DNA from: a virus
Lineage: Duplodnaviria; Caudoviricetes
Strand: one strand, 5' to 3'
IMG/VR virus record: IMGVR_UViG_3300033076_000328
Location: 1 to 46,708 of that record
Length of the DNA: 46,708 nucleotides
Shown: piece by piece, positions 7,127-33,369 of the stretch
Numbering within the stretch: the stretch's first letter is position 1
Layout of the letters: each line of letters opens with the position of its first letter
Made by a program: the position numbers and the translations under genes
Notes under the pieces: generated by a model
Told to the model about the DNA's origin: nothing
The model's database searches: none
What the model saw: the letters and a program-made list of their open reading frames with translations, nothing else

Positions 7127-7165
7127 AAAAAAAACCCCGGTCAGATTGCTCTGCCGGGGTTCTTT
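7127..7165. terminator. Bidirectional intrinsic terminator between convergent units
   Basis: A8-CCCCGG-TCAGATTGCTCTG-CCGGGG-TTCTTT. Confidence 0.8.
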
Positions 7166-8579: not shown

Positions 8580-8761
8580 GATGCCTCCTGTTGAAACTTG
8601 AGATTGAACCGAGCAGGGTCTACCCACATAAAGACCTTCCTGCCATCTGTTGACTGCACGTTGATCTGCTTGCCGTCATGACTGAGGTAGATGTACCTCT
8701 GCCTGCCGTGCAAGATAGCGCCCGTCTCCACGGGCTTGCCTTCTTGATTGACGATGATCAT
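8576..8761 (-). CDS. Hypothetical protein
   Basis: 61 aa ORF overlapping both neighbours. Confidence 0.65.
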   Translation of the reverse strand: MIIVNQEGKPVETGAILHGRQRYIYLSHDGKQINVQSTDGRKVFMWVDPARFNLKFQQEAS

Positions 8762-9558
8762 GCGACTTTCCTCCGGACAGTTTTGAGCAGTTGATTGAAT
8801 GCAGCAGCGCCGAGGTCTTCAACCTTATCCACGTTGACCGAGTCAACGAAGCAGTCGAGTACGTCAGGCGAGTTGATACCGATGGCAACGATGGTCACGC
8901 CGACTTTGTCTGCCAGCGTTTGCAGGTGCTGCATATGCGCCCTCATATACCCGTTGGCATCAGTGAGCAGGAACAGAATGCGGCGGTGCTCAGGGCGCTG
9001 AGACAGATCGTCGATGGCATTGGCAATCGCAGAGTAGTCAGGGGTGCCGCCCCATGCAGACGATTTGATGTACCCCAGCACAGGCGCAGATTGCAGCAGT
9101 GACTTGCCCCACGGTTTAAACGGGATGAACCGGGGTGACTCGACCCGACCGCCGCCCTCTAGGTATTCCTTCTTGCCCGTGTTGAAACCCGTTACACAGA
9201 AGGGCACCCGAGCCTTGTGCAGCAAATTCGACAGATGCACCGTGATGGTCTGGGCAACAACGATTTTGTTGGTGGTCTTGCCATCGTTCATCGATCCGGA
9301 GCAGTCGATCAGCACCGACACCGCCGAGGTCTCAGCCTCCACATACTGGCGGCGGCTGAACACGTTGGCAGACCCCGTTGCGAACTTGGTCAGAGCGCGG
9401 CGGTCCAGCCTGCCCGATTCTTCCGACTTGGACCAGCCCACAAAGTCCAGAGACCGGAGCAGGCGCTGCAAGTTGTTGCGAGTCATTCCCATGCCTCGCG
9501 GCACGTTAGCAAGGTCATCGGCGTACATAGCCTGACCCATAGATTTACTGATTTGCAT
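8758..9558 (-). CDS. vWA-domain protein (CobT C-terminal-like)
   Basis: SGRLDRRAL, MIDAS DCSGSM, GGTPD, LLTDANG, IVAIGI. Confidence 0.9.
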   Translation of the reverse strand: MQISKSMGQAMYADDLANVPRGMGMTRNNLQRLLRSLDFVGWSKSEESGRLDRRALTKFATGSANVFSRRQYVEAETSAVSVLIDCSGSMNDGKTTNKIVVAQTITVHLSNLLHKARVPFCVTGFNTGKKEYLEGGGRVESPRFIPFKPWGKSLLQSAPVLGYIKSSAWGGTPDYSAIANAIDDLSQRPEHRRILFLLTDANGYMRAHMQHLQTLADKVGVTIVAIGINSPDVLDCFVDSVNVDKVEDLGAAAFNQLLKTVRRKVA

Positions 9559-9567
9559 GAAGCCTCC

Positions 9568-10533
9568 TTAGATGAATTCGATAGGTGCCCAGATGGGCTT
9601 GCCGGGATGCGGTCTGGCGCGAAGGTCATCAGCCTTGGACCGGATGCCCTCGCACCGATTCTGAATCAGCCCGTCAGGCTCAACCTCCCTGCCCGTAGGC
9701 TCGGAGTGCCCAGAGCCGTTTTCCTCAGAACCCTTGTCTACCCCTTCCCCCGGCTCTTGCGCGTCTCCTGAGCCGTTCTGAGGGGTCTGAGGGGCATTCC
9801 CGGGCTGGTCCCCCGACTCCCCGGGTTGGGGGGGCTGATCAGATTGCCCGGGCTGGTCAGACTGTCCGGGCTGCTGCTCTTGCTGCTGCTGCTGTTGTTG
9901 CTTCCGGGTCTGCTTGAGCCTGTTGTAAAGCTCGATGGCGATCTGGGCGATGCGGTGAGTGTTCTTGGCGGCTTTGGCTGCTTTCAGAGCAGCGCGTATC
10001 TCGACCTTGTACGGTGATGCGCCGAGAACGGACGGTACGCACAGGTCGTAACCGTTTAAACGGCGACCCTCGATAGCCAGCATGAACGGGATGTTTTTGA
10101 AGTCGTCCGGTTCAACGTAGCCATCCTTGCGGAGGACTTGATTGACCAGAAATTCAAACAACGAAGCAGCGTTCGGTGCGTAGCCAGAGTCGATTACGCA
10201 CTGCTCGATGCGGGGGTCTTCCAGACCGTTGATCAGCTTGCCAACGTAGTCACCGTGCTGTGCCCGGGCGTTGTCCCAAGGCTCATCCTCGGTGAACCAT
10301 TTGTGTCCGAGTTCGTGCAGCGCGTAGCCGATGAACTCATTGAACATCGACTGCGATACAGGCTTGGTCTCATCGATCCCGGGGAACATGATGTAGGTCG
10401 TGTCGCTCTCAGTCTTGATGCCAGCGGTGGAACCCGACCAAGTGATAACCAGCTTGTCGAAGTCTCGGTTGCTGGCTTTGTAGATGCGCTCCAGAGTCGC
10501 CTCGACTCCGCGCTTTGCTTCCAGTGCAATCAT
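9568..10533 (-). CDS. CobT N-terminal-like / metallopeptidase-like protein with Q-rich linker
   Basis: LHELGHKWFT (HExxH), NGLEDPRIE; poly-Q and QPGQSD repeats. Confidence 0.8.
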   Translation of the reverse strand: MIALEAKRGVEATLERIYKASNRDFDKLVITWSGSTAGIKTESDTTYIMFPGIDETKPVSQSMFNEFIGYALHELGHKWFTEDEPWDNARAQHGDYVGKLINGLEDPRIEQCVIDSGYAPNAASLFEFLVNQVLRKDGYVEPDDFKNIPFMLAIEGRRLNGYDLCVPSVLGASPYKVEIRAALKAAKAAKNTHRIAQIAIELYNRLKQTRKQQQQQQQEQQPGQSDQPGQSDQPPQPGESGDQPGNAPQTPQNGSGDAQEPGEGVDKGSEENGSGHSEPTGREVEPDGLIQNRCEGIRSKADDLRARPHPGKPIWAPIEFI

Positions 10534-10542
10534 GGTGCCCCC

Positions 10543-11991
10543 TTACTTGGTGAGTGCGAGTTTGAAGTCGCGTTCGTTGATATGTGACGCATACACGCCA
10601 GCCAGTTCTACGGCGCAGTCGCTCGGGAACTTGTTGACGATGGCGTTGTTGAATGCAGCCTGTACAGGCATACCCTTCTTGACCGCCCGTGCCCATGCCA
10701 GCAGTTGGCGCAGCGAGGGGGGCTGAGTCAGCAGCCCTGCGCGAGCCTTCTCGCGTGCCACATTGGCGAACTTGACGATCATCCGAGCAGCGTCGAGCGT
10801 GATGCCCGTGCGGCTGACCAGCAGACCGATCTCATCGTCCTCGGGCAGGTAGTCGAACATCAGCGTGAAGCTGAAGCGGTCGATAAAGGCGCTGTTCTGT
10901 TCGCGAACACCAGCGAAGTTGCCAGAGGCATCACCGTGCCCGTTGCTGTTGTCGGCGCAGAAGAAGGCAACGTGGGAGGCGACAGGGATGCGCTCGCCCG
11001 TCTCGCTGATGGTGATGGCGCGGTGCGGGGAGCGTTCGCACAGGGCGTGAAGGGCAGACAGAGACTGCGCCCGGGCGAATCCGATCTCATCGAGCAGCAC
11101 CAGCGCACCGGGGTGCTTGATAGCCTGAGTGATGATCCCGGGCTTCCAGACAACCGAGCCAGACTCGATGCTATTGCCGCCGATGAAGTCGGCACGTTCC
11201 AGAGCCTCATCGAAGTTGACCCGGAACAGGCGGCGCTTCAGACGCGCTGCAAGCTGAGTCACGAACTCCGACTTGCCGGTGCCTCGCTCGCCTGCCAGCC
11301 AAGTGTTGTCCGGGAGGGGATCGTCTAGGGCAATCAGAGCCTGATGCAGGTGCTCAGGGTTGAAGACGTAGTCATCGACCACGGCGGGGGCTTGCGGGTC
11401 ATTCCAGACGGTGACTTCCATGCTGCCGAAGTCCTCGCCAGAGTAGACGCAAGCAGCGTCCCCGAATACGTCCTTGGCGGGGGCAACAGTAAACGATGGC
11501 AGGGCGTTGGCGATGGTCTTGAGTTGCTGCTCGGTGGCTTTCTGGCGGAAAGAGTCGAACAGGGCAGAGACTTGCTGCGCGACCTCGTTGCTGATGCGAG
11601 CGGGGTCTGGCTTGCTGATGGAGTCAACCCGGGCGACCAGAGACTCAGACAGGTTGCGGAACTCGGTCTGCATCGAGTTGGTCATGGACCGGACAGAGGC
11701 AGACAGGGTGCCGACCTCACGCAGGGCGGTCTCTGCACTCTGCAAGGCGTTGACTGCCTGAGTGCTGGCACCGTTGACTTTGCTGCGGAGGTCGTTATCG
11801 ATCTTACTGGTGACGACAGGCGCAGGTTTGACGTTGAGCACGTTGTCCCAGTTTGCGATGCCACTGTCGATCAAGGCGCGTACAGCAGCCTTAGCGGCTT
11901 TTTTGTCGTCGATGGGAACCTGACTGTGCTGCACCAGCACGGTGTTGAGTTGCACCAGCGAGAGCAGGGCGAGACGTTGTTCGTAGTTCAT
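10543..11991 (-). CDS. MoxR/CbbQ/CobS-type AAA+ ATPase
   Basis: Walker A GERGTGKS, Walker B LLDEI, NSAFIDRF, PSLRQLLAW. Confidence 0.9.
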   Translation of the reverse strand: MNYEQRLALLSLVQLNTVLVQHSQVPIDDKKAAKAAVRALIDSGIANWDNVLNVKPAPVVTSKIDNDLRSKVNGASTQAVNALQSAETALREVGTLSASVRSMTNSMQTEFRNLSESLVARVDSISKPDPARISNEVAQQVSALFDSFRQKATEQQLKTIANALPSFTVAPAKDVFGDAACVYSGEDFGSMEVTVWNDPQAPAVVDDYVFNPEHLHQALIALDDPLPDNTWLAGERGTGKSEFVTQLAARLKRRLFRVNFDEALERADFIGGNSIESGSVVWKPGIITQAIKHPGALVLLDEIGFARAQSLSALHALCERSPHRAITISETGERIPVASHVAFFCADNSNGHGDASGNFAGVREQNSAFIDRFSFTLMFDYLPEDDEIGLLVSRTGITLDAARMIVKFANVAREKARAGLLTQPPSLRQLLAWARAVKKGMPVQAAFNNAIVNKFPSDCAVELAGVYASHINERDFKLALTK

Positions 11992-12008
11992 GGTTAGCCT
12001 CCGTTGAA

Positions 12009-12575
12009 TTACAGGGAAAGGGTGTTGCGGTCATTCGGGCAGGTCGGCAGACCTTGATTTGCCCAGTACTGAGACAGGCGCACCGTGTACCCGCAGGACG
12101 GGCAGGATGCTTTGAGCATCCGGGTTGTTTGCTTCTTCCTCACTGCCTCGATGTTTAAACGGGCGTGAGGGTACTCTCCGAGACCTGCCATCAGGTTCGC
12201 AAAGTTCTGTCGGAAGGTATCCCCTGCAACCGTAGCAGTGGGCTTGCCTTCTAGCCAAAGTGAGCGGACGCAGCGGGTGAACTCTTTGCCGTGACCGTCA
12301 CCGTCTGTAGCAGCGTGAGCCAGTTCGTGGACCAGCGTAGCAAACACTTGCACGGGGTCATCGACAACCGGGGAGATCAAGATCTCATGGTGCTGGTCGG
12401 TGCTGGCTTTGGGGGACCAGTGCTCACCGATGAATCGGTTGTTGGCACGGGCGCGGCTGGAGGGGAACCCGCAGGTCACCCGGATGCGCTCGGGCAGGGG
12501 GAACCCGTTGCTGTCGAAGATGGACCGAAGTTCCTCGACGGCGGCGTTGAGCCATTCCTCGCGGATGGTATGCAT
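12009..12575 (-). CDS. SprT-like zinc metalloprotease with C-terminal zinc ribbon
   Basis: LVHELAH...GHGKEF; CPSCGY..R...CP; start at ATG 12575 after AAGGAG. Confidence 0.8.
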   Translation of the reverse strand: MHTIREEWLNAAVEELRSIFDSNGFPLPERIRVTCGFPSSRARANNRFIGEHWSPKASTDQHHEILISPVVDDPVQVFATLVHELAHAATDGDGHGKEFTRCVRSLWLEGKPTATVAGDTFRQNFANLMAGLGEYPHARLNIEAVRKKQTTRMLKASCPSCGYTVRLSQYWANQGLPTCPNDRNTLSL

Positions 12576-12577
12576 AG

Positions 12578-12685
12578 TCACTCCTTGTTGCGGTGCTTGG
12601 GTTGTCGGATGTACTTGGTTCTTACGGTGTGTCTGCCAGCCCCGCTGGAGCGGGAGTGCTTGGCAACGAAGTTGCGGGGTCTCAT
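12578..12685 (-). CDS. 35 aa basic peptide (not in the ORF track)
   Basis: MRPRNFVAKHSRSSGAGRHTVRTKYIRQPKHRNKE with AGGAGG RBS; fills the gap exactly. Confidence 0.7.
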   Translation of the reverse strand: MRPRNFVAKHSRSSGAGRHTVRTKYIRQPKHRNKE

Positions 12686-12903
12686 GGTGCCTCCTGAGTT
12701 GCACGAACCTCTTGAGGGTGCAAGAGGAAAACACCCGGGCACAGGTCATCGACCCTGTACCCACGGCGGCGCAGCGCCGCAATCGTCGAGAACGACCAAG
12801 GCTTGTACAGCCCGGTCTCCATGTACAGGCATCCGTTGCCGCTGCTCTGGTTGCCCCCCTGTGCCAACAGGCGCAGGGCATCATTGATTTTGAGATGGCT
12901 CAT
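12682..12903 (-). CDS. Hypothetical early protein
   Basis: AGGAGG RBS; coupled to the next ORF. Confidence 0.6.
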   Translation of the reverse strand: MSHLKINDALRLLAQGGNQSSGNGCLYMETGLYKPWSFSTIAALRRRGYRVDDLCPGVFLLHPQEVRATQEAP

Positions 12904-12905
12904 GT

Positions 12906-13118
12906 TCAAACCTCCTGAGTTGAATTGCGGGACTCATGCGGTTCGCGGCAGATGCCCTGCCCGATGAGGTCGGACGCAGTGCGCCCAAACCAGCCCTGCA
13001 GTTTCCAAGCGAGACCTGAGTCGATCAGGTATTGCCAAGCGGCGATGAAGGTTTCATCGTCAGCCTCGATCCAGCCCTCTGCGATGCCGACTGCGTTCAT
13101 GGGGTTGAGTGCGCTCAT
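12906..13118 (-). CDS. Hypothetical early protein
   Basis: AWQYLIDSGLAWKLQGWFGRTA, a common phage early-gene pattern. Confidence 0.75.
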   Translation of the reverse strand: MSALNPMNAVGIAEGWIEADDETFIAAWQYLIDSGLAWKLQGWFGRTASDLIGQGICREPHESRNSTQEV

Positions 13119-13139
13119 GCTGCCTCCTGAGTTGAATGG

Positions 13140-13352
13140 TTAGTACAAGTTGCTCTGTCCACGGGCTTGGTACGAGGCGCTGACGCGCTCTTCGTACTGA
13201 TCCTCTTGCTGGTCTTGGAAGTCCTGCCACTCGCGTTCCTGCGCTGCTTCCTCTGCGTAGAGACGGTCAGAGAAGCCGCCCTCGACCAGAGTGCCGTTGA
13301 CGTACACGCCCCAACGGAGTGGGGATTGTTCACGGACGGTGATCTTGTTCAC
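13140..13352 (-). CDS. Acidic first gene of the early operon
   Basis: GTG start at 13352 after AGGAGG; WGVYVNGTLVEGGF, D/E/Q-rich tail. Confidence 0.65.
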   Translation of the reverse strand: MNKITVREQSPLRWGVYVNGTLVEGGFSDRLYAEEAAQEREWQDFQDQQEDQYEERVSASYQARGQSNLY

Positions 13353-13359
13353 TTTGTAG

Positions 13360-13745
13360 CCTCCTGTGTGATGCGGGATTGCATCCACAAGCACACTGCA
13401 AACCAATGTGCTTGAAGGGAAATCCCTTGCCGCCCTTATCCACGAGGGCGAAGCATGGGGTGAGAGCCTTGCCATCTGTGCGCCGGTTGGGCGCGGTGCG
13501 TTGCACTGTGCTTGCTCCCCTGAAGGTGTAGGTGGGTGAGCGTGAGAGGTGCTTGCACCGTGGTAGGTGTCTCACTAGGTGATGAGGGCTGGTTGCTTCC
13601 TGTCGGTCCCCTGAGTGTGTAGGTGGGTGACCAGTCGGAAGCCGTGTACCTCACCGGCTTTCCTGCTCGGGCATAGAGTGGTTGCGAGTCACTCATCGAA
13701 GCCGTCCTGTGGGGATGGTGTTTCCCCCTCCCCGAAGGGAAACCA
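13360..13745 (-). ncRNA. Long structured leader / ncRNA of the early operon
   Basis: 5' UUCG hairpin, two 28-nt covarying hairpin repeats (13514-13541, 13605-13632), pseudoknot at 13370-13426. Confidence 0.55.
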
Positions 13746-13746
13746 G

Positions 13747-13776
13747 AGTTTAAACGCACAAAAGCACGAACGTCAA
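13747..13776 (-). promoter_or_regulatory. Putative leftward early sigma70 promoter
   Basis: Minus strand TTGACG-N18-TAAACT; the -10 lies in a GTTTAAAC site. Confidence 0.55.
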
Positions 13777-13985
13777 CCCCATGCAAGCATCAGACTGAAA
13801 AACTGTTGTTTTCCCTCTGTAGACCAATCCCGAGTACTTTGTGGGGTTATTACTTGCCCGGGGGGATGCCCGAAGGGCGAACAGACTTGACAGGTCGTGT
13901 AAACAGAGCGAAGGTAAGGGGTAGGTACTCTGAGTGCAGAAGAAGTGCTCAGAGGGGCAATAAAGGGCTTACAGAGGGTGATTTG

Positions 13986-14606
13986 ATGAACCGGGACAAA
14001 CTGATCGAGATGCTGGAGAGCGACACAAGCACGACCGAGGAGATCGACACAAGCACCGAGCCGCCGGGGAAACCACTGAGCGAAGCGGAACGGGCAGTTC
14101 TGAAGATCCAAGAGACAAAGACCCCTACAGGAAAGATATGGGGAGTAAAGAGAGAGCAAAGAGAAAAGAAGCTCACCCCTCAGATGCAATGCTTCGTCAA
14201 CGCAATACTGGCAGGTCAAACAAAGGTCGAGGCGTACAAGAGCGCATACAACGTCCGAACCAACTCAGAAGCAATGATGGTCGCCAACGCGAACAAGCTC
14301 CTGAAGGATTCGAGGATAGCTGCACTACTGGGGTCTCTCGATGATGCCCTCAAAGAAAAGGTCATCGATGACGCAGTGAAGACCCGCAGGTTCGTCATGG
14401 AGCGTTTACACGCCCGGGTGATGGCAGCCAAGACCGAGAGTGCAGAACTCAAAGCACTGGAACTCATGGGCAGGGCGGTGGCTATGTTCACCGACAACGT
14501 GGACCAGAAGGTGCGGCAGATCGACACAAACCAACTCAAAGAGGAACTCCGATCTCACCTGACCCTGCTGGAGAACGTGGTGCCACTTGAGAAGCGCACT
14601 GCCTAG
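13986..14606 (+). CDS. terS: Terminase small subunit
   Basis: KLTPQMQCFVNAILAGQTKVEAYKSAY...ANKLLKDSRI HTH and KALELMGRAVAMFTD. Confidence 0.8.
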   Translation: MNRDKLIEMLESDTSTTEEIDTSTEPPGKPLSEAERAVLKIQETKTPTGKIWGVKREQREKKLTPQMQCFVNAILAGQTKVEAYKSAYNVRTNSEAMMVANANKLLKDSRIAALLGSLDDALKEKVIDDAVKTRRFVMERLHARVMAAKTESAELKALELMGRAVAMFTDNVDQKVRQIDTNQLKEELRSHLTLLENVVPLEKRTA

Positions 14607-14816
14607 CATAGGCACAGCGTGATGCGTGGGCAGGTACAGGCACACGCTGGCACAGATCAGCGGCTCTCAGTGGCTCTTGGTGGCTGTGACCCCGGTGCTT
14701 GTGGGCGTGGGCGGGTAGGCGACCCCCACCCACCCGGCACCCCCCTGTACACGCCAAGCCACCCCTCCACCCTATACACTCTATTCCACACATTCCCCAC
14801 CACTCACCACTAACCA

Positions 14817-14828
14817 GAACGCTCGTTC
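14817..14828. promoter_or_regulatory. GAAC-N4-GTTC operator-like palindrome
   Basis: aGAACgctcGTTCg in non-coding DNA. Confidence 0.5.
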
Positions 14829-15024
14829 GGGGGGCGTTAGGCAGACATCAGAGGATGCGGCACTCCGGGGCTTTTTCTGCCTTCGACCCGGGCTTTGTTG
14901 AGCCGTTAAATCTGGTCCCCCACCCTTGTTGGGAAAGTTGGGAAGGATTGCTGGGGCAGTGATCTTGGGATGATTGCTGGGAAATGGCTTTTGTGACCCC
15001 CGGGGGGGTATATATAAATGGGTG

Positions 15025-15053
15025 TTGACAGGAACGTCTGTTCTTAGTAAAGT
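15025..15053 (+). promoter_or_regulatory. Sigma70 promoter with GAAC-N4-GTTC box in the spacer
   Basis: TTGACA-N17-TAAAGT; GAACgtctGTTC at 15032-15043; AAGGAGG RBS follows. Confidence 0.75.
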
Positions 15054-15078
15054 TCTGTTCACACAAGGAGGCTTTTGT

Positions 15079-15324
15079 ATGAAATTGATGGTAGAGCATA
15101 GTGCTCAGGTGAAGAAGAGGGGCACACCTAAGCCGAAGGGGATGTCTATCAAGAAGGTTCCAGAGGATGTCAGGAAGGTCATGGAAGAGACGGCATTGAA
15201 TGTTTTCACTGACATGGTCAATTCGGGGGCTTCTTTGCAGCAGACATTGGCAGCGATTTACTTGTCTGGCATAGAGAACGCTATGGCGATATGGAGGGAA
15301 CATGAATCGCAAAGAACTCAGTGA
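15079..15324 (+). CDS. Hypothetical protein
   Basis: ATG 15079 after AAGGAGG. Confidence 0.7.
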   Translation: MKLMVEHSAQVKKRGTPKPKGMSIKKVPEDVRKVMEETALNVFTDMVNSGASLQQTLAAIYLSGIENAMAIWREHESQRTQ

Positions 15325-15580
15325 GCTTTTGGACTTGTGCGGGTTAACCCCTATGAGTCTGATGACTTGGAATGGGAAGACCCATGTTCATGTGGATGAC
15401 TGCATTGATGGGGATATAGCTGCTTTGGTTCAGTTTGTCAGGATTGTTGAGAAGAAGAAGGCAGAGGAGATTGCAGAGTTGGTGGAGAAGATGGGCATAG
15501 AGGGGTATGGGACTTTGGCGATTGCTGCTGCTATCAGGGGCAAGCCAGAGATGTTGTTTGATGATTGGGGATGGAAATGA
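15302..15580 (+). CDS. Hypothetical protein
   Basis: EGYGTLAIAAAIR accessory-gene motif. Confidence 0.65.
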   Translation: MNRKELSELLDLCGLTPMSLMTWNGKTHVHVDDCIDGDIAALVQFVRIVEKKKAEEIAELVEKMGIEGYGTLAIAAAIRGKPEMLFDDWGWK

Positions 15581-15747
15581 AGAAGACGATTCCTTGGATA
15601 CCTGTTGGGCACCCGGAGTTCAAATGGACCTCTGGATCAGATGTTCAGAAGACTTGGAGGAAGTACGGCTGGACTCCCCCCAGTGAGAAGAGGACACCTT
15701 TTGTGGAGCCTGTAAAAGAGCCTGAGTGGATCAGGAGGGTCAAATGA
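15577..15747 (+). CDS. Hypothetical protein
   Basis: SDVQKTWRKYGWTPPSE; ATGA-coupled. Confidence 0.7.
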   Translation: MKKTIPWIPVGHPEFKWTSGSDVQKTWRKYGWTPPSEKRTPFVEPVKEPEWIRRVK

Positions 15748-15959
15748 CTGATAAAACAGGTGGGCCAGCGTTTCCTCGGTCGGGAGATTTCAATCCTCAA
15801 ACAGGCATGACCCTGCGTGACTACTTTGCGGCTAAAACGATGTCGTCTTACCTTGCCCGTCCAAATCTTCCAATCAACGTCAGCGATGAGGAACTTGCTT
15901 TTGCTTGCTATGACATGGCAGATGCCATGCTTAAGGCAAGAGCCAAATGTAAGAGTTAA
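15744..15959 (+). CDS. Hypothetical protein (GGPAFP...GMTLRDYFAAK family)
   Basis: Recognisable phage motif ending YDMADAMLKAR. Confidence 0.8.
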   Translation: MTDKTGGPAFPRSGDFNPQTGMTLRDYFAAKTMSSYLARPNLPINVSDEELAFACYDMADAMLKARAKCKS

Positions 15960-15962
15960 GGA

Positions 15963-16169
15963 GTGAAAATGTTTCAAATTGAGAAAAATGTTCCATTGCC
16001 CAAGAAGTACCCGTTTGATGAGATGGAGGTAGGAGACTCTTTTGAGCTTCTCGACACCATGAAAAGGAACACGGTCAACATTGCCGCGAGACGGTATGGG
16101 GATAAAACGGGCAAGAAGTTTGTAGTCAGGACCAAGGATAAGAAATTGCGCTGCTGGAGGCTGGCATGA
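15963..16169 (+). CDS. Small putative DNA-binding protein
   Basis: IEKNVPLP..KYPFDEMEVGDSF...LRCWR. Confidence 0.7.
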   Translation: MKMFQIEKNVPLPKKYPFDEMEVGDSFELLDTMKRNTVNIAARRYGDKTGKKFVVRTKDKKLRCWRLA

Positions 16170-16540
16170 AAGGAAACCAGATTCTGGAGCTTTGGAGGCA
16201 ACACAAGGAGGTCTTGTCCTTCTCCAAAGCATTGCTTTCGGCAGAAAGACAAGCCTGCGCCCGACTGGCAGAAGAAAATGAGAAGAAGTTTGAACTCAGG
16301 CAGATCAAGAATCAGTGGGTCTGGGTCAGCCCCGCAGCAGAAGCCATTAAGGAACGAGACATGGATGATGATATTCAGGACTACAAAAAGGAATGGGTAA
16401 GCATTACAGAGGAAGAGGTTGAAAGCATTTTCAATCAGGTCGAGTGGATCATGAAGCTGGACTTCGATCAAGACCGCCCCCTCTGGTGCATGACCTTTGC
16501 TCAACTGGTAGACAAGAAACTCAAAGACAAAAATTCATGA
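16166..16540 (+). CDS. Hypothetical accessory protein
   Basis: AERQACARLAE and EWVSITEEE modules. Confidence 0.65.
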   Translation: MKGNQILELWRQHKEVLSFSKALLSAERQACARLAEENEKKFELRQIKNQWVWVSPAAEAIKERDMDDDIQDYKKEWVSITEEEVESIFNQVEWIMKLDFDQDRPLWCMTFAQLVDKKLKDKNS

Positions 16541-16683
16541 AATGCCCTCTTTGTGGTGCCCCCACAGATGTCAAAGAAACCAAGACCCAAGACGGAATAC
16601 CCATAAGGAGACGACATTGCTACAACAACCATTCATTCCGGACCAAGGAAATCCCGATCAGCCAGCCCAAGCCAAAAAGATAG
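16537..16683 (+). CDS. Zinc-ribbon protein (NrdR N-terminal-like)
   Basis: MKCPLCGAPTDVKET...RRRHCYNNHSFRTKE. Confidence 0.7.
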   Translation: MKCPLCGAPTDVKETKTQDGIPIRRRHCYNNHSFRTKEIPISQPKPKR

Positions 16684-16883
16684 CCTTTACCACCAACGGC
16701 AAATCGTTTTTGATCGCCAGTGCCACCCCAAAAATTGTGGGTTACTGGGTCATGCCCGGGGGCACAAAGAGTTGGTACACCAAGTTTGCCGTGTATACAA
16801 AACCCCGCTGGCACGTTCGTAAGATGATGCTCTGGGTATTCGGCTGGGACTGGGAACCCGAAAAAGACACTTGCACGAACTGA
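16680..16883 (+). CDS. Small hypothetical protein (start uncertain)
   Basis: 3' part of ORF 16542..16883 with KPRWHVRKMMLWVFGWDW fills the gap. Confidence 0.4.
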   Translation: MAFTTNGKSFLIASATPKIVGYWVMPGGTKSWYTKFAVYTKPRWHVRKMMLWVFGWDWEPEKDTCTN

Positions 16884-16899
16884 TGTTCGCGTTTAAACT
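16871..16899 (+). promoter_or_regulatory. Sigma70 promoter with CGAAC-N4-GTTCG operator upstream of the LexA-like gene
   Basis: TTGCAC-N17-TAAACT; CGAACtgatGTTCG at 16876-16889; -10 lies in GTTTAAAC. Confidence 0.7.
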
Positions 16900-16925
16900 G
16901 CGCTCCGTCTTTGAAAGGAGCGACA

Positions 16926-17156
16926 GTGACAGAACGCCAAAGAGCGGTTTTGGAGTTCATCCAAGCCTACATCAGAATGAAGGGGTTTGCCCCTTCTTTG
17001 CAGGATGTAGCCACCGGACTGGGGCTACGATCTAAGTCAAATATCCACAGAGTTATCCACGACCTTGAGGATCAGGGTCTCCTGACCCTCGTCCCAAATA
17101 AGGTCCGGACCATCAAACTCCGTGATCGTTCCGTGGAGAAGATGCTCTCTCTATGA
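16926..17156 (+). CDS. LexA DNA-binding-domain-only winged-helix regulator
   Basis: TERQRAVLEFI...GFAPSLQDVATGLGLRSKSNIHRVIHDLEDQGLL; no peptidase domain; GTG start after AAGGAG. Confidence 0.85.
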   Translation: MTERQRAVLEFIQAYIRMKGFAPSLQDVATGLGLRSKSNIHRVIHDLEDQGLLTLVPNKVRTIKLRDRSVEKMLSL

Positions 17157-18655
17157 GTGATCTTCTAACCCGGGATGAGATCAAGCAGTATCTTGCTTTG
17201 CTCGATACGCTACCGGAAGGCTCCCTCGAAATAGAGAAGATCCACACCCTCCTACAGGCAGATAAGCAGGAGCGGTGTAGGCAGAACTTCATGCCGTTCG
17301 TGCGGCAGATGTGGGCTGCATTCATCCCCGGCAAACACCATCAGATCATGGCAGATGCCTTTGAAAGGGTTGCCCGGGGAGAATTAAAGCGCCTGATCAT
17401 CAATATGCCTCCCCGGCATACCAAGTCAGAGTTCGCCTCATACCTCTTTCCTTCTTGGTTTCTGGGTCTGTACCCCGAAAAGAAGGTTATCCAGACCGCC
17501 CACACCGCAGAATTGGCAGTGGGATTCGGTCGTAAGGTCAGGAATCTGGTCGGCTCCAGCGACTATCAGTCCGTCTTCCAGACCAAAATGTCGGCAGATT
17601 CCAAGGCAGCAGGACGCTGGAATACCTCCAAAGGAGGTGATTACTTCGCTATCGGTGTCGGTGGCGCTGTTACGGGTAAAGGTGCCGACCTACTTATCAT
17701 CGACGACCCCCATTCCGAGCAGGAAGCCATGCAAGGCAACCCTGCCGTCTATGACAGGGTCTATGAATGGTATTCCTCTGGTCCCCGGCAGCGTCTCCAG
17801 CCGGGAGGCTCCATAGTGATCGTGATGACCCGCTGGTCCAAGCGAGACCTGACAGGACAAATCCTTAACGCCGCTGCAAAAAAAGATCTGGAAGACTGGG
17901 AAGTCATTGAGTTGCCTGCTCTGCTTCCCTCTGGCAAGCCCCTGTGGGCTGAATTCTGGAAACAAGAGGAATTGGAAGCCATCAAGGCAGAACTCCCGGT
18001 AGGCAAATGGGAAGCCCAATACCAACAAAACCCTACATCAGAAGAGGGAGCCATCATCAAGCGGGATATGTGGCAAATCTGGGAGAACGAACGCCCCCCG
18101 GAGGTCGATTACATCATCCAAAGCTGGGATACAGCCTTTGAAAAGAACAACAGGGCAGACTACTCAGCCTGCACCACATGGGGCGTTTTCTACCGAGATG
18201 TCGATGGGGCAGAGATTGCCAACATCATTGTTTTGGATGCCTTCAAGGAACGGATGGAATTCCCAGAACTGAAGAAGACAGCCTTTGAGTTCTGGAAAGA
18301 ATGGAATCCAGACACCCTAATTGTGGAAAAAAAGGCTGCTGGAGCGCCCCTGATCTATGAAATGAGGAAGATGGGCATCCCCATTTCGGAGTACACACCG
18401 AGCAAAGGGTCGGATAAGATAGCTCGTGTAAACGCCGTGTCAGATCTTTTTGCCTCTGGCATGGTTTGGAGACCCGAAACTCGTTGGGCTGATGAACTGG
18501 TAGAGGAGCTTGCCTCGTTCCCAAACGGCGACCACGATGACTTGGTGGACTCAACAACCCAAGCATTGCTCCGTTTCAGACAAGGCGGCTTTATCAAGTT
18601 GGAATCGGACGAAGTGGAGGGTTCGTTTATGCCCCGTAAGGCGGCATATTACTGA
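17153..18655 (+). CDS. terL: Terminase large subunit
   Basis: LIINMPPRHTKS, LIIDDPH, VMTRW, nuclease SWDTA, IVEKKAAG, HDDLVDSTTQAL. Confidence 0.97.
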   Translation: MSDLLTRDEIKQYLALLDTLPEGSLEIEKIHTLLQADKQERCRQNFMPFVRQMWAAFIPGKHHQIMADAFERVARGELKRLIINMPPRHTKSEFASYLFPSWFLGLYPEKKVIQTAHTAELAVGFGRKVRNLVGSSDYQSVFQTKMSADSKAAGRWNTSKGGDYFAIGVGGAVTGKGADLLIIDDPHSEQEAMQGNPAVYDRVYEWYSSGPRQRLQPGGSIVIVMTRWSKRDLTGQILNAAAKKDLEDWEVIELPALLPSGKPLWAEFWKQEELEAIKAELPVGKWEAQYQQNPTSEEGAIIKRDMWQIWENERPPEVDYIIQSWDTAFEKNNRADYSACTTWGVFYRDVDGAEIANIIVLDAFKERMEFPELKKTAFEFWKEWNPDTLIVEKKAAGAPLIYEMRKMGIPISEYTPSKGSDKIARVNAVSDLFASGMVWRPETRWADELVEELASFPNGDHDDLVDSTTQALLRFRQGGFIKLESDEVEGSFMPRKAAYY

Positions 18656-31920: not shown

Positions 31921-33369
31921 GTGCTCGGACTGCTGCCATATTCGACAGCGCCGTATTCATCGCTATCTGGTGCTGTTTATGCGGCTTCTGTCTCGGAAAC
32001 CGCCAGAGCCTCAGATACGCTGAGTGCGCTGGCTTCGTTCGCCAGTACAGTCAGTGAAACGGCAACGGCAGCAGATTCCATATCGGCTCGGGTAACTTTC
32101 CAAGGCACAGTCTCGGAGACCGCCAGAGCCTCTGATTCCGTCAGCACAAGCGTCACCTATCAGGTGACTGTCATAGAGTTGGTGACGGGGGCAGATTCAA
32201 TCTCTGCCTCTGTTATCTTCAATTCAAGTGTCAATGAGACCGCTACAGCATCTGACTCTGTCTCTGCGGCGGCAAATTTTGCCGTCTCGGTAACCGAATC
32301 CAACACTGCATCTGAGACCGTACTGGCTACGGTAATCCTTGTTTCAACGGTCAATGAGACCGCAACGGGGGCAGACAGTGCTTCTGCGGGTGTTGTTTTC
32401 AACGGCTCTGCATCTGAGACTGCAACTGGTACAGATCAAGCGCAAGCGGCGGCAACCTTTGTCACCAGCCTATCGGAGTCGGCTACTGGCACAGATCAAA
32501 CGCAGGCTTCCGCAAACTTTGCGGTCAATCTTGCTGAAACAGTTTCTGCTGCTGATCAAGTACAGGCATCTGCTGATTTTGCTCCCAGCGTAAATGAGAC
32601 TGTCACAGGCGCAGATCAAGCCTCTGCAACGGCAGTCTTTGGTGCCTCGGTAGACGAGACGGCTACTGGCTTAGATGAAATCTTTGCCGGTGCTGAAATG
32701 AACAGTGCGGTGGCTGAAGATGCTGCTGCGCTAGACGATCAGCAGGCATCGGTTGATTTTGGAGGCAGTGTTTCTGAGGACGCAACAGGCTCAGATCAAG
32801 TAAATGTGGCTATAGATTTTGGCGGGCTGATCGATGAGTCTTCTACTGTCGAAGACTTGATCTCTGCAATTGCTGATTTTGTTGCTGATGTCAATGAGAC
32901 TGCAAATGCGTCTGATGAGTTGTCTTCATCTTTTGCATTTGCTGGAAACATTGAAGAATCTGCTATGGCTACTGATGAGCCTTCGGCTGGTGTTGTTTTT
33001 ATTGTCGATGTTACCGAATCTGGCGTTGTTGAGGATTTGATCGGCGCGTCTGTAGATTTTGGCGCTTTGATTGATGAGACCGCTGTAGGATCAGATGAAT
33101 CTGGGTCTATTTTGATCTTTGGGGCTACAGTTGCTGAATTGCTGAATGCCAATGACAGCTTGCTGGCAAGGCTGTTGTGGGAGATCATCAATGACAGCCA
33201 GACGGGGCAATGGAATGTGATCAATGCTCAGAATGGAGCAACTTGGTCCAACATCAATACCTCTGATACTGCCAATTGGAATCTCATAAATGCACAAAAC
33301 GGCAGTAATTGGTCCACCATCAACACATCTGACTCGGCAACTTGGAACGTCATAAAGACATCGAACTGA
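31921..33369 (+). CDS. Repeat-rich virion protein (about twenty 20-aa repeats plus six 11-aa WxxIN repeats)
   Basis: SVSETARASDTLSALASFA-type periodicity throughout. Confidence 0.8.
   Translation: MLGLLPYSTAPYSSLSGAVYAASVSETARASDTLSALASFASTVSETATAADSISARVTFQGTVSETARASDSVSTSVTYQVTVIELVTGADSISASVIFNSSVNETATASDSVSAAANFAVSVTESNTASETVLATVILVSTVNETATGADSASAGVVFNGSASETATGTDQAQAAATFVTSLSESATGTDQTQASANFAVNLAETVSAADQVQASADFAPSVNETVTGADQASATAVFGASVDETATGLDEIFAGAEMNSAVAEDAAALDDQQASVDFGGSVSEDATGSDQVNVAIDFGGLIDESSTVEDLISAIADFVADVNETANASDELSSSFAFAGNIEESAMATDEPSAGVVFIVDVTESGVVEDLIGASVDFGALIDETAVGSDESGSILIFGATVAELLNANDSLLARLLWEIINDSQTGQWNVINAQNGATWSNINTSDTANWNLINAQNGSNWSTINTSDSATWNVIKTSN

Follow-up and report, generated by a model that had tools for sequence, protein, structure and literature searches.

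Twin hairpins in a phage early leader are copies of a portable, covarying module within a larger structured RNA

Which RNA do the twin hairpins ahead of the early genes of this phage belong to, and what might they do there? The window, i.e., the whole stretch of 46,708 nucleotides analysed here, is an IMG/VR virus record with 76% completeness by CheckV, and its large terminase shares 52-59% identity with those of HTVC023P/HTVC027P-like and related cultured phages. Leftward from about 13350 run early and replication genes (SprT-like, AAA, vWA, exonuclease, Erf, SSB), and rightward from about 13980 the divergent terminase small subunit gene (13980..14606, plus strand; PHROG 51, E 1.2e-08) is followed by the structural genes. 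The hairpin leader is located between these divergent blocks, on the early-gene strand. The first early gene (13140..13352, minus strand; GTG start 13352, stop 13140) has no family match and is preceded by a ribosome-binding site at 13360..13364 (minus strand), and the untranslated, highly folded early leader spans 13353..13740 on the same strand, with its 5' end placed by a promoter candidate.

The sequence-only reading had described two 28-nt hairpins on the minus strand, 91 nt apart and identical in 24 of 28 positions, and both were found again, copy 1 at 13605..13632 (4-bp stem, bulged A, CCC/GGG and a 13-nt loop starting ACCUA) and copy 2 at 13514..13541. Each of them folds as had been proposed. 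In 30 dinucleotide shuffles of the whole window the best repeat within 300 nt reached 22/28, and the covariation claimed between the stems is present as one pair switched from G-C to C-G, the other two differences lying in the loop. Other window repeats of at least 22/28 occur only in structural-gene coding regions (31988-33239 and 40558), where they recur with periods of 60-300 nt. A covariance-model search of the window returned the two copies only. As lone hairpins they are of ordinary stability (z -1.05 and -2.14); the leader, folded as 411 nt, is unusually stable (z -3.48, equalled by none of 100 shuffles).

Across IMG/VR, a pattern in which the loop and the G-run were fixed and three stem positions left free matched 52 loci, in 50 of which the unconstrained upstream bases form a full 4-bp stem, with nine stem types; the two unpaired matches are one duplicated unrelated sequence. 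A second set of leaders, gathered by a separate motif 90-200 nt away, which avoids selection on the loop, contained 24 genuine matches out of 60 (19 distinct), and all of these carry both hairpins. The module consists of a 4-5 bp stem of free sequence, a bulged A, two to three pairs closed by C-G, and a loop of 10-14 nt that starts AC-N-UA and is variable in sequence and length from there on. Loop position 3 is C, U or A, the AC and UA never change, and beyond this start the loops are almost free of G (2 G in 357 letters). The inner stem is CCC/GGG in 39, CC/GG in 11 and CUC/GAG, a two-sided change, in one of the 51 descriptor matches (one of them due to chance), and below most copies come an AC/GAC internal loop and then an outer stem. 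With the chance match L094 removed, the 50-copy alignment has a covariation of 0.58 versus 0.17 after shuffling, a statistic that is partly circular because the copies were chosen by pairing. Comparison of the aligned copies shows a stem kept by pairing, and a bulged A, closing C-G pairs and an AC-N-UA loop word kept by sequence. A repeated RNA module under structural selection, as proposed from the window, is therefore strongly supported, since homologues keep the stem covariation. In a metagenome scan, 25 of the 120 matches listed are paired, 19 with the AC internal loop in known leader types and six chance-like, and no new module context appeared among the matches listed.

The repeated module proved to be part of something bigger than had been claimed. 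By covariation, the hairpins sit in a multi-domain non-coding RNA of about 340 nt (13370-13706, minus strand) with predicted pseudoknots, located between the early promoter-like site and the first ribosome-binding site; in close relatives this stretch is conserved, and the upstream DNA and the first gene differ. In a hand-drawn model of 65 pairs, applied to 18 distinct full leaders of the window type, 97.4% of cells are paired and 26 of the 65 pairs show two-sided changes. None of 500 shuffles reaches its covariation score and slid registers pair at 30-46%, with the qualifications that the model was derived from the same 18 sequences and that kinship inflates the shuffle test. The 5' domain (13666..13706) comprises a 3-bp stem, an asymmetric loop and a 5-bp hairpin, with a loop that pairs with 13669-13666 in a predicted pseudoknot; all its cells are paired in 18/18 leaders, with two-sided changes in both stems and only one-sided ones in the pseudoknot. 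Arm 1 (13582..13654) carries module copy 1 on a 6-bp stem (13654-13649 with 13587-13582) and, further in, a 5-bp stem (13641-13637 with 13600-13596) with the AC/GAC internal loop; 108/108 and 88/90 cells are paired in these stems, both with two-sided changes. Arm 2 (13460..13575) is closed by a long-range stem that encloses module copy 2, in which GUGAGA (13575-13570) pairs with a distal UCUCAC (13465-13460) in 99/108 cells, again with two-sided changes across the 18 leaders. The nearby UCUCAC (13547-13542) was rejected as partner, with 62/108 cells paired. The third CACCUAC that had been placed in a stem between the twins is present (13569-13563), and its GUGAGA stem closes on the distal rather than the nearby strand. 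CACCUA is invariant here (13569-13564) and is not a hairpin loop; in the model its CCU can pair with an invariant AGG (13469-13467), a pairing out of reach of covariation because both sides are invariant.

Further towards the gene, a conserved hairpin at 13450-13431 (element 13431..13457) is paired in 108/108 cells with two-sided changes, and its possible 4-bp pseudoknot to 13457-13454 is unproven because it is invariant. The 3' domain (13370..13428) consists of a short hairpin (13428-13415), a long hairpin (13414-13388; 140/144 cells paired), which is the slot where other phages graft the module, and a final hairpin (13385-13370), and it ends 6 nt before the ribosome-binding site. A loop-loop pairing of 13424-13421 with 13380-13377 is predicted (59/72 cells, one two-sided change). 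All these elements are read on the minus strand, and many G-U pairs are kept on that strand only, one of them in 18/18 leaders, which favours an RNA of the minus strand. A protein-coding reading of the leader was rejected, because the 18 leaders share no open frames and their differences in length do not keep the frame.

A sigma-70-like promoter candidate (TTGACG, 18 nt, TAAACT; 13747..13776, minus strand), which is a consensus match only and no better than chance in this stretch, stops 115 nt short of module copy 1 and 206 nt short of copy 2. It is overlapped at 13748-13755 by the palindrome GTTTAAAC (minus strand), and 17 of 19 records have a GTTTAAAC-type site at a distance of 300-460 nt upstream from the leader 3' hairpin, in most cases with an extended -10-like word after it. 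Downstream of the leader, the early operon is 5-6.5 kb long and ends, before a convergent primase/helicase gene, at a strong intrinsic-terminator-like hairpin (7127..7159, minus strand); in the window no strong terminator was found ahead of this end, and some relatives have weak to moderate terminator candidates inside the operon. Its core of SprT-like, MoxR/CobS-like AAA and two-gene CobT/vWA genes (8758-12575, minus strand) is present in 18-19 of 19 records, and the small genes right after the leader are variable. A 15-nt repeat ending in a ribosome-binding site precedes three successive early genes (12690-12704, 12911-12925 and 13123-13137, minus strand) and is a possible recombination point for gene shuffling.

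With respect to transcription, a freshwater metatranscriptome yielded a sole contig on 6 kb, which is 152 nt long, falls within the leader (13453-13602) and has 2 differences, and in a marine metatranscriptome contigs of relatives cover the leader and early genes. The metatranscriptome runs were found with the leader region itself, and their contigs are unstranded and may hold DNA, so that together they give a weak hint that the leader is transcribed. From the evidence, 15 of 19 sequencing runs with small shares were left out; runs X1 and X3 are probably DNA, and missing cover elsewhere in run X7 carries no weight. From gene order only, we infer that the leader lies on the first transcript made after infection.

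The palindrome itself deserves mention. GTTTAAAC occurs 16 times in the window versus 0.56 expected (at 1178, 4138, 4373, 7075, 9114, 10054, 12153, 13748, 16891, 19244, 24433, 27587, 29434, 30744, 43271 and 44148), is the commonest 8-mer of the record set, and is found in each of 18 relatives in 11-47 copies (<2 expected), within genes too. The early promoter candidate carries one copy, and another lies just ahead of a gene for a small protein with a LexA DNA-binding domain only (PF01726, E 6e-15; 16911-17156, plus strand), which lies just before the large terminase and is present in 14 of 19 records. This LexA-domain protein is a candidate binder of the palindrome. None of the 251 bacterial genomes sampled, a tally that takes in G067 and G246, two genomes that bear no claim here, reaches a phage-like density, and a literature search on the palindrome found nothing.

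To follow the module among related phages, family leaders were selected by the 3' hairpin plus ribosome-binding site, giving 69 loci with 56 distinct upstream regions; eight were set aside as chance or other contexts (L144, L148, L152, L155, L171, L182, L192, L208), leaving 48 family leaders. The module is present in 31 of these, 30 by strict match and one as a variant found by the covariance model, and 17 have none. Strict-match leaders hold one copy in 21 of 30 cases and two in nine, counts that are low as the descriptor undercounts; related phages range from 0 to 3 copies per leader, with three in L130. Slots vary as well: the module may sit on the 5' arm, on the central arm or at the end of the 3' long hairpin, and the scaffolds are unrelated. 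G011 and G020, with 87-96% identity over their eight longest blocks, nevertheless differ at one slot, which holds the module in one and a short GGAGGA-containing loop in the other. In L143 and L176 the tip of the 3' long hairpin has a GGAGGA-containing loop where sister phages hold the module. In the phage whose small terminase is nearest (86%), the leader is of another kind and holds a single module copy. A tree built from two early proteins of 19 records has G024 on a long branch and leaves 5 of its 15 inner branches open; it requires 4 changes for the window-type leader (shuffled mean 6.3; 23/500 as low) and likewise 4 for the module-free state (shuffled mean 4.6), and leader type is scattered on this core-protein tree. 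Across these genomes, the module is portable and dispensable, with related aquatic phages adding, moving or dropping copies within one leader.

Module-free leaders hold other recurring RNA modules, and some leaders mix both kinds. Because other slots hold other RNA modules, the leader can be regarded as a mosaic cassette. A second repeated module, in 1-3 copies by eye, lies within 470 nt upstream of the 3' hairpin (L140, L161, L172, L177, L184, L185, L187, L188, L194, L205); it has a 4-5 bp stem and a loop with a variable triplet that seems to covary with the bases after an A-rich linker. This second module appears to be a small H-type pseudoknot with an A-rich loop, as predicted from these pairings, and gave no Rfam match. 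More shared modules (in L141, L142, L147, L153, L204 and others) show either an AGUA/GAA internal loop or a three-U bulge followed by tandem GA, which we take to resemble loop-E and kink-turn motifs. The 3' hairpin domain with the adjoining ribosome-binding site is also seen before internal genes and in other phages (L148, L152, L160, L180, L182), and L020 and L205 have second copies of it; because of these other settings, the domain may be an independent translation-start element.

A partner for the module was sought in 19 records (the window and 18 others fetched wholly or partly; 1.5 Mb, both strands); aside from five weak chance-like matches, no module copy lies outside the leader in these. 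The records thus hold no operator-like copy that would point to a phage protein as binder. Among these records, with crude ORF calls, mostly incomplete sequences and five module-free members, no phage protein family covers the module-bearing records and is missing from the module-free ones; the best-tracking families occur in 6 and 7 of 14 module-bearing records and in 0/5 module-free ones. Turning to bacteria, with Burkholderiales as the guessed host group, the covariance model found no module copies in 5 + 151 genomes (the 151 being Burkholderiales, 41 candidates scored in each), none of 121 chance loci carried the module among the matches listed in a GTDB scan, and no match to the terminase small subunit was obtained in 401 Burkholderiales genomes. 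Rfam 15 gave no match at E up to 5 in 20 related leader loci, and scanning window positions 12000-17200 returned one chance match outside the leader (E 0.65). Neither the window leader nor one module-free leader matched cultured phages and plasmids by blastn. A likeness of the 5' strand of the module to the 16S 3' tail was rejected as chance, because E. coli rRNA has four two-mismatch matches and about six are expected. We found no paper on this RNA in the accessible literature. The IMG/VR candidates of Fremin et al. 2023 (PMC10690425) gave no motif match in the portion available, and a fragment of the leader may be among the candidate structured RNAs of that work.

What, then, could such hairpins do? 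Hairpins that bind proteins usually have this build, with stem, bulge, stem and a loop of fixed sequence. The free stem, the fixed bulge and loop bases, the independence from the scaffold, the variable copy number, the gain and loss between near-identical phages and the lack of a phage partner all point to an accessory ligand-binding RNA, and a host protein is the ligand we propose, given that the module is tracked by no phage gene and its loop finds no pairing partner in the RNA. Our tentative preference, which falls somewhat short of an even chance, is that the twin hairpins serve as accessory baits, sequestering an RNA-binding protein of the host in the early phase of infection. Of the functions proposed from the window, the protein-binding decoy would thus be the best fit. 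The leader would be transcribed from the upstream sigma-70-like promoter candidate at the start of infection, the scaffold domains would display the module loops and protect the RNA, and the loops would bind a host protein of defence, RNA decay or regulation. Phage RNA decoys do exist, according to the accessible parts of PMC3475682 and PMC10651486. Counting against the bait, a decoy should mimic a host RNA, and 151 Burkholderiales genomes yielded no copy; moreover, the leader lacks its own terminator and is continuous with the first gene, and may thus be confined to acting in cis. The constancy of the loop bases would be explained just as well by tertiary docking of RNA. A wider form of the bait reading, which we regard as possible and doubtful, makes the whole leader an array of swappable RNA baits at the head of the first transcript, each slot directed against a different host RNA-binding or defence protein and modules being exchanged as hosts change. 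Its fillers would be the bulged hairpin, the small A-rich-loop pseudoknot, the GGAGGA-loop hairpin and others, and such an array, if true, would be the RNA counterpart of variable early anti-defence genes.

The antitermination role that had been suggested from the window, of put/boxB type, belongs to a broader and fairly unlikely explanation in which the module acts in cis on the nascent early transcript, as a signal that brings a host factor onto RNA polymerase or the message (nut/put-like, anti-Rho or RNase protection). In its favour, the module is never more than about 450 nt downstream from the early promoter candidate and precedes the 5-6.5 kb operon, no phage RNA polymerase was found among 62 window proteins scanned, some relatives have those weak terminator candidates inside the operon, and put, too, is located close to an early promoter, as a double hairpin (PMC8632103, available in part). 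Yet the signal would be missing from 17/48 leaders and from one of two near-identical phages, its slot moves between the 5' arm and a point 40 nt short of the last hairpin, the window carries its copies in separate arms at a distance of 91 nt rather than as an adjacent double hairpin, and no N-like protein covaries with it in 19 records. The suggestion is weakened further by the window operon, where no strong terminator precedes the end and read-through there would enter the convergent gene. An architectural part in a large ornate RNA, with loop and internal loop docking on RNA within or between molecules and a protein unneeded, is unlikely. The densely paired multi-domain surroundings with predicted pseudoknots, the related word CACCUA invariant inside a helix junction, and the RNA-only multimers that GOLLD and ROOL form via loops and A-minor contacts (bioRxiv 10.1101/2024.12.08.627333, in the part at hand) would suit it; the grafting of the module on unrelated scaffolds, its removal with no other change to the 3' domain, and, by inspection of the class I alignment, the lack of a conserved loop complement or of any site tracking the C/U/A position do not.

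More improbable is that the C-rich loops are antisense seeds pairing with host RNA, namely with rRNA or with ribosome-binding regions rich in G. E. coli 16S rRNA has the complement of the core 9-mer at 251-259, 23S rRNA complements 8-13 nt of some copies at 2113-2125, and C-to-U changes would still pair with G; a best match of 9-10 nt for an 18-nt segment in 4.5 kb is, however, near chance (about 8 expected, as an estimate), the invariant stem claims three of the nine bases, pairing is lost with the A variant, the loop past 5 nt is not conserved, and E. coli is not the host. Mimicry of a known antitoxin (ToxI) or CRISPR repeat, another role raised from the window, we consider very improbable. 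Variable copy number and a place just downstream of a promoter candidate recall pseudo-ToxI and Racrs, but neither the window region nor 20 related leaders match Rfam at E up to 5, and the module is a hairpin with a stem free to vary, not a 36-nt pseudoknot in head-to-tail repeats. That the element works as single-stranded DNA, as a packaging, ejection or replication signal by the terminase gene, is equally remote: its fixed position beside the small subunit gene would suit such a signal, whereas the G-U pairs kept on the minus strand only, a start after the promoter candidate, an end at the ribosome-binding site and the dispensability of the module speak for something else.

Together, the bait reading being the one we favour, these data describe a real RNA module and leader family that are apparently undescribed and members of no family tested. 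The few structured RNAs described from phages are joined by a strongly covarying module and a multi-domain RNA of 340 nt. Within a single early leader, RNA modules are swapped between close relatives in the way that accessory genes are. The natural pairs with and without the module, together with a five-base fixed loop word, make the ligand testable. By analogy the module may work like a phage RNA decoy, and if the modules are baits, phage RNA counter-defence is broader than the known repeat and antitoxin mimics.

Among known systems, RNA-phage coat-protein operators consist of a stem, a 5'-side bulged A, a short upper stem and a loop with fixed bases. The module shares the bulged A, the short upper stem and the fixed loop bases; it differs in a much larger loop, an extra AC/GAC internal loop, a start codon left uncovered and no copy before other genes. 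Sponge RNAs of CsrA/RsmA have several conserved GGA loops, and this candidate was rejected, because relatives do not preserve the GGA words of the window and the module loops are nearly devoid of G. HK022 put and lambda nut (PMC8632103, available in part) resemble the leader as structured RNA close behind a phage early promoter served by host polymerase, the leader promoter being a candidate. The same source describes put as a double hairpin of about 65 nt needed for early expression and boxB as requiring the phage N protein, whereas the module forms single, movable, dispensable hairpins in a 340-nt RNA, with no partner gene and no sequence match found. The loop of nut/boxB is short and purine-rich with a GNRA fold, in contrast to module loops of 10-14 nt that are almost G-free (likewise from the part available). 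Like GOLLD and ROOL, the leader is phage-borne, with many covarying stems and predicted pseudoknots; those are genes near tRNA islands in what is accessible of bioRxiv 10.1101/2024.12.08.627333, and the leader is smaller and operon-continuous, with exchangeable modules and no Rfam match. The PeSL cassettes of T4-type phages (PMC2839356, partly available) have in common with it an early promoter plus stem-loops and modular shuffling between close relatives, but they are dispersed repeats with terminator stem-loops, as against one locus per genome and a module with a sequence-fixed loop and no U-tract.

The decoy RNAs of phages offer the comparison closest to our preferred reading. Pseudo-ToxI and Racrs copy an identifiable host RNA (ToxI pseudoknot repeats and CRISPR repeats, respectively), in the portions available of their descriptions, and for the module no host model was found. 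Pseudo-ToxI, as a type III antitoxin, is built of tandem pseudoknot repeats of about 36 nt and the module copies are hairpins that are not head-to-tail; a Racr is CRISPR-repeat-like in sequence and structure, and the module has no match among the Rfam repeat families and stem letters that vary freely. What the module shares with Racrs is a promoter within 250 bp upstream, its copies being 115 and 206 nt from the promoter candidate, and with both pseudo-ToxI of phage TE (PMC3475682) and Racrs (PMC10651486), each available in part, the character of an accessory phage non-coding RNA present in variable copies near a promoter. By this analogy, decoying in the manner of pseudo-ToxI and Racrs would be the likely mode of action of the module.
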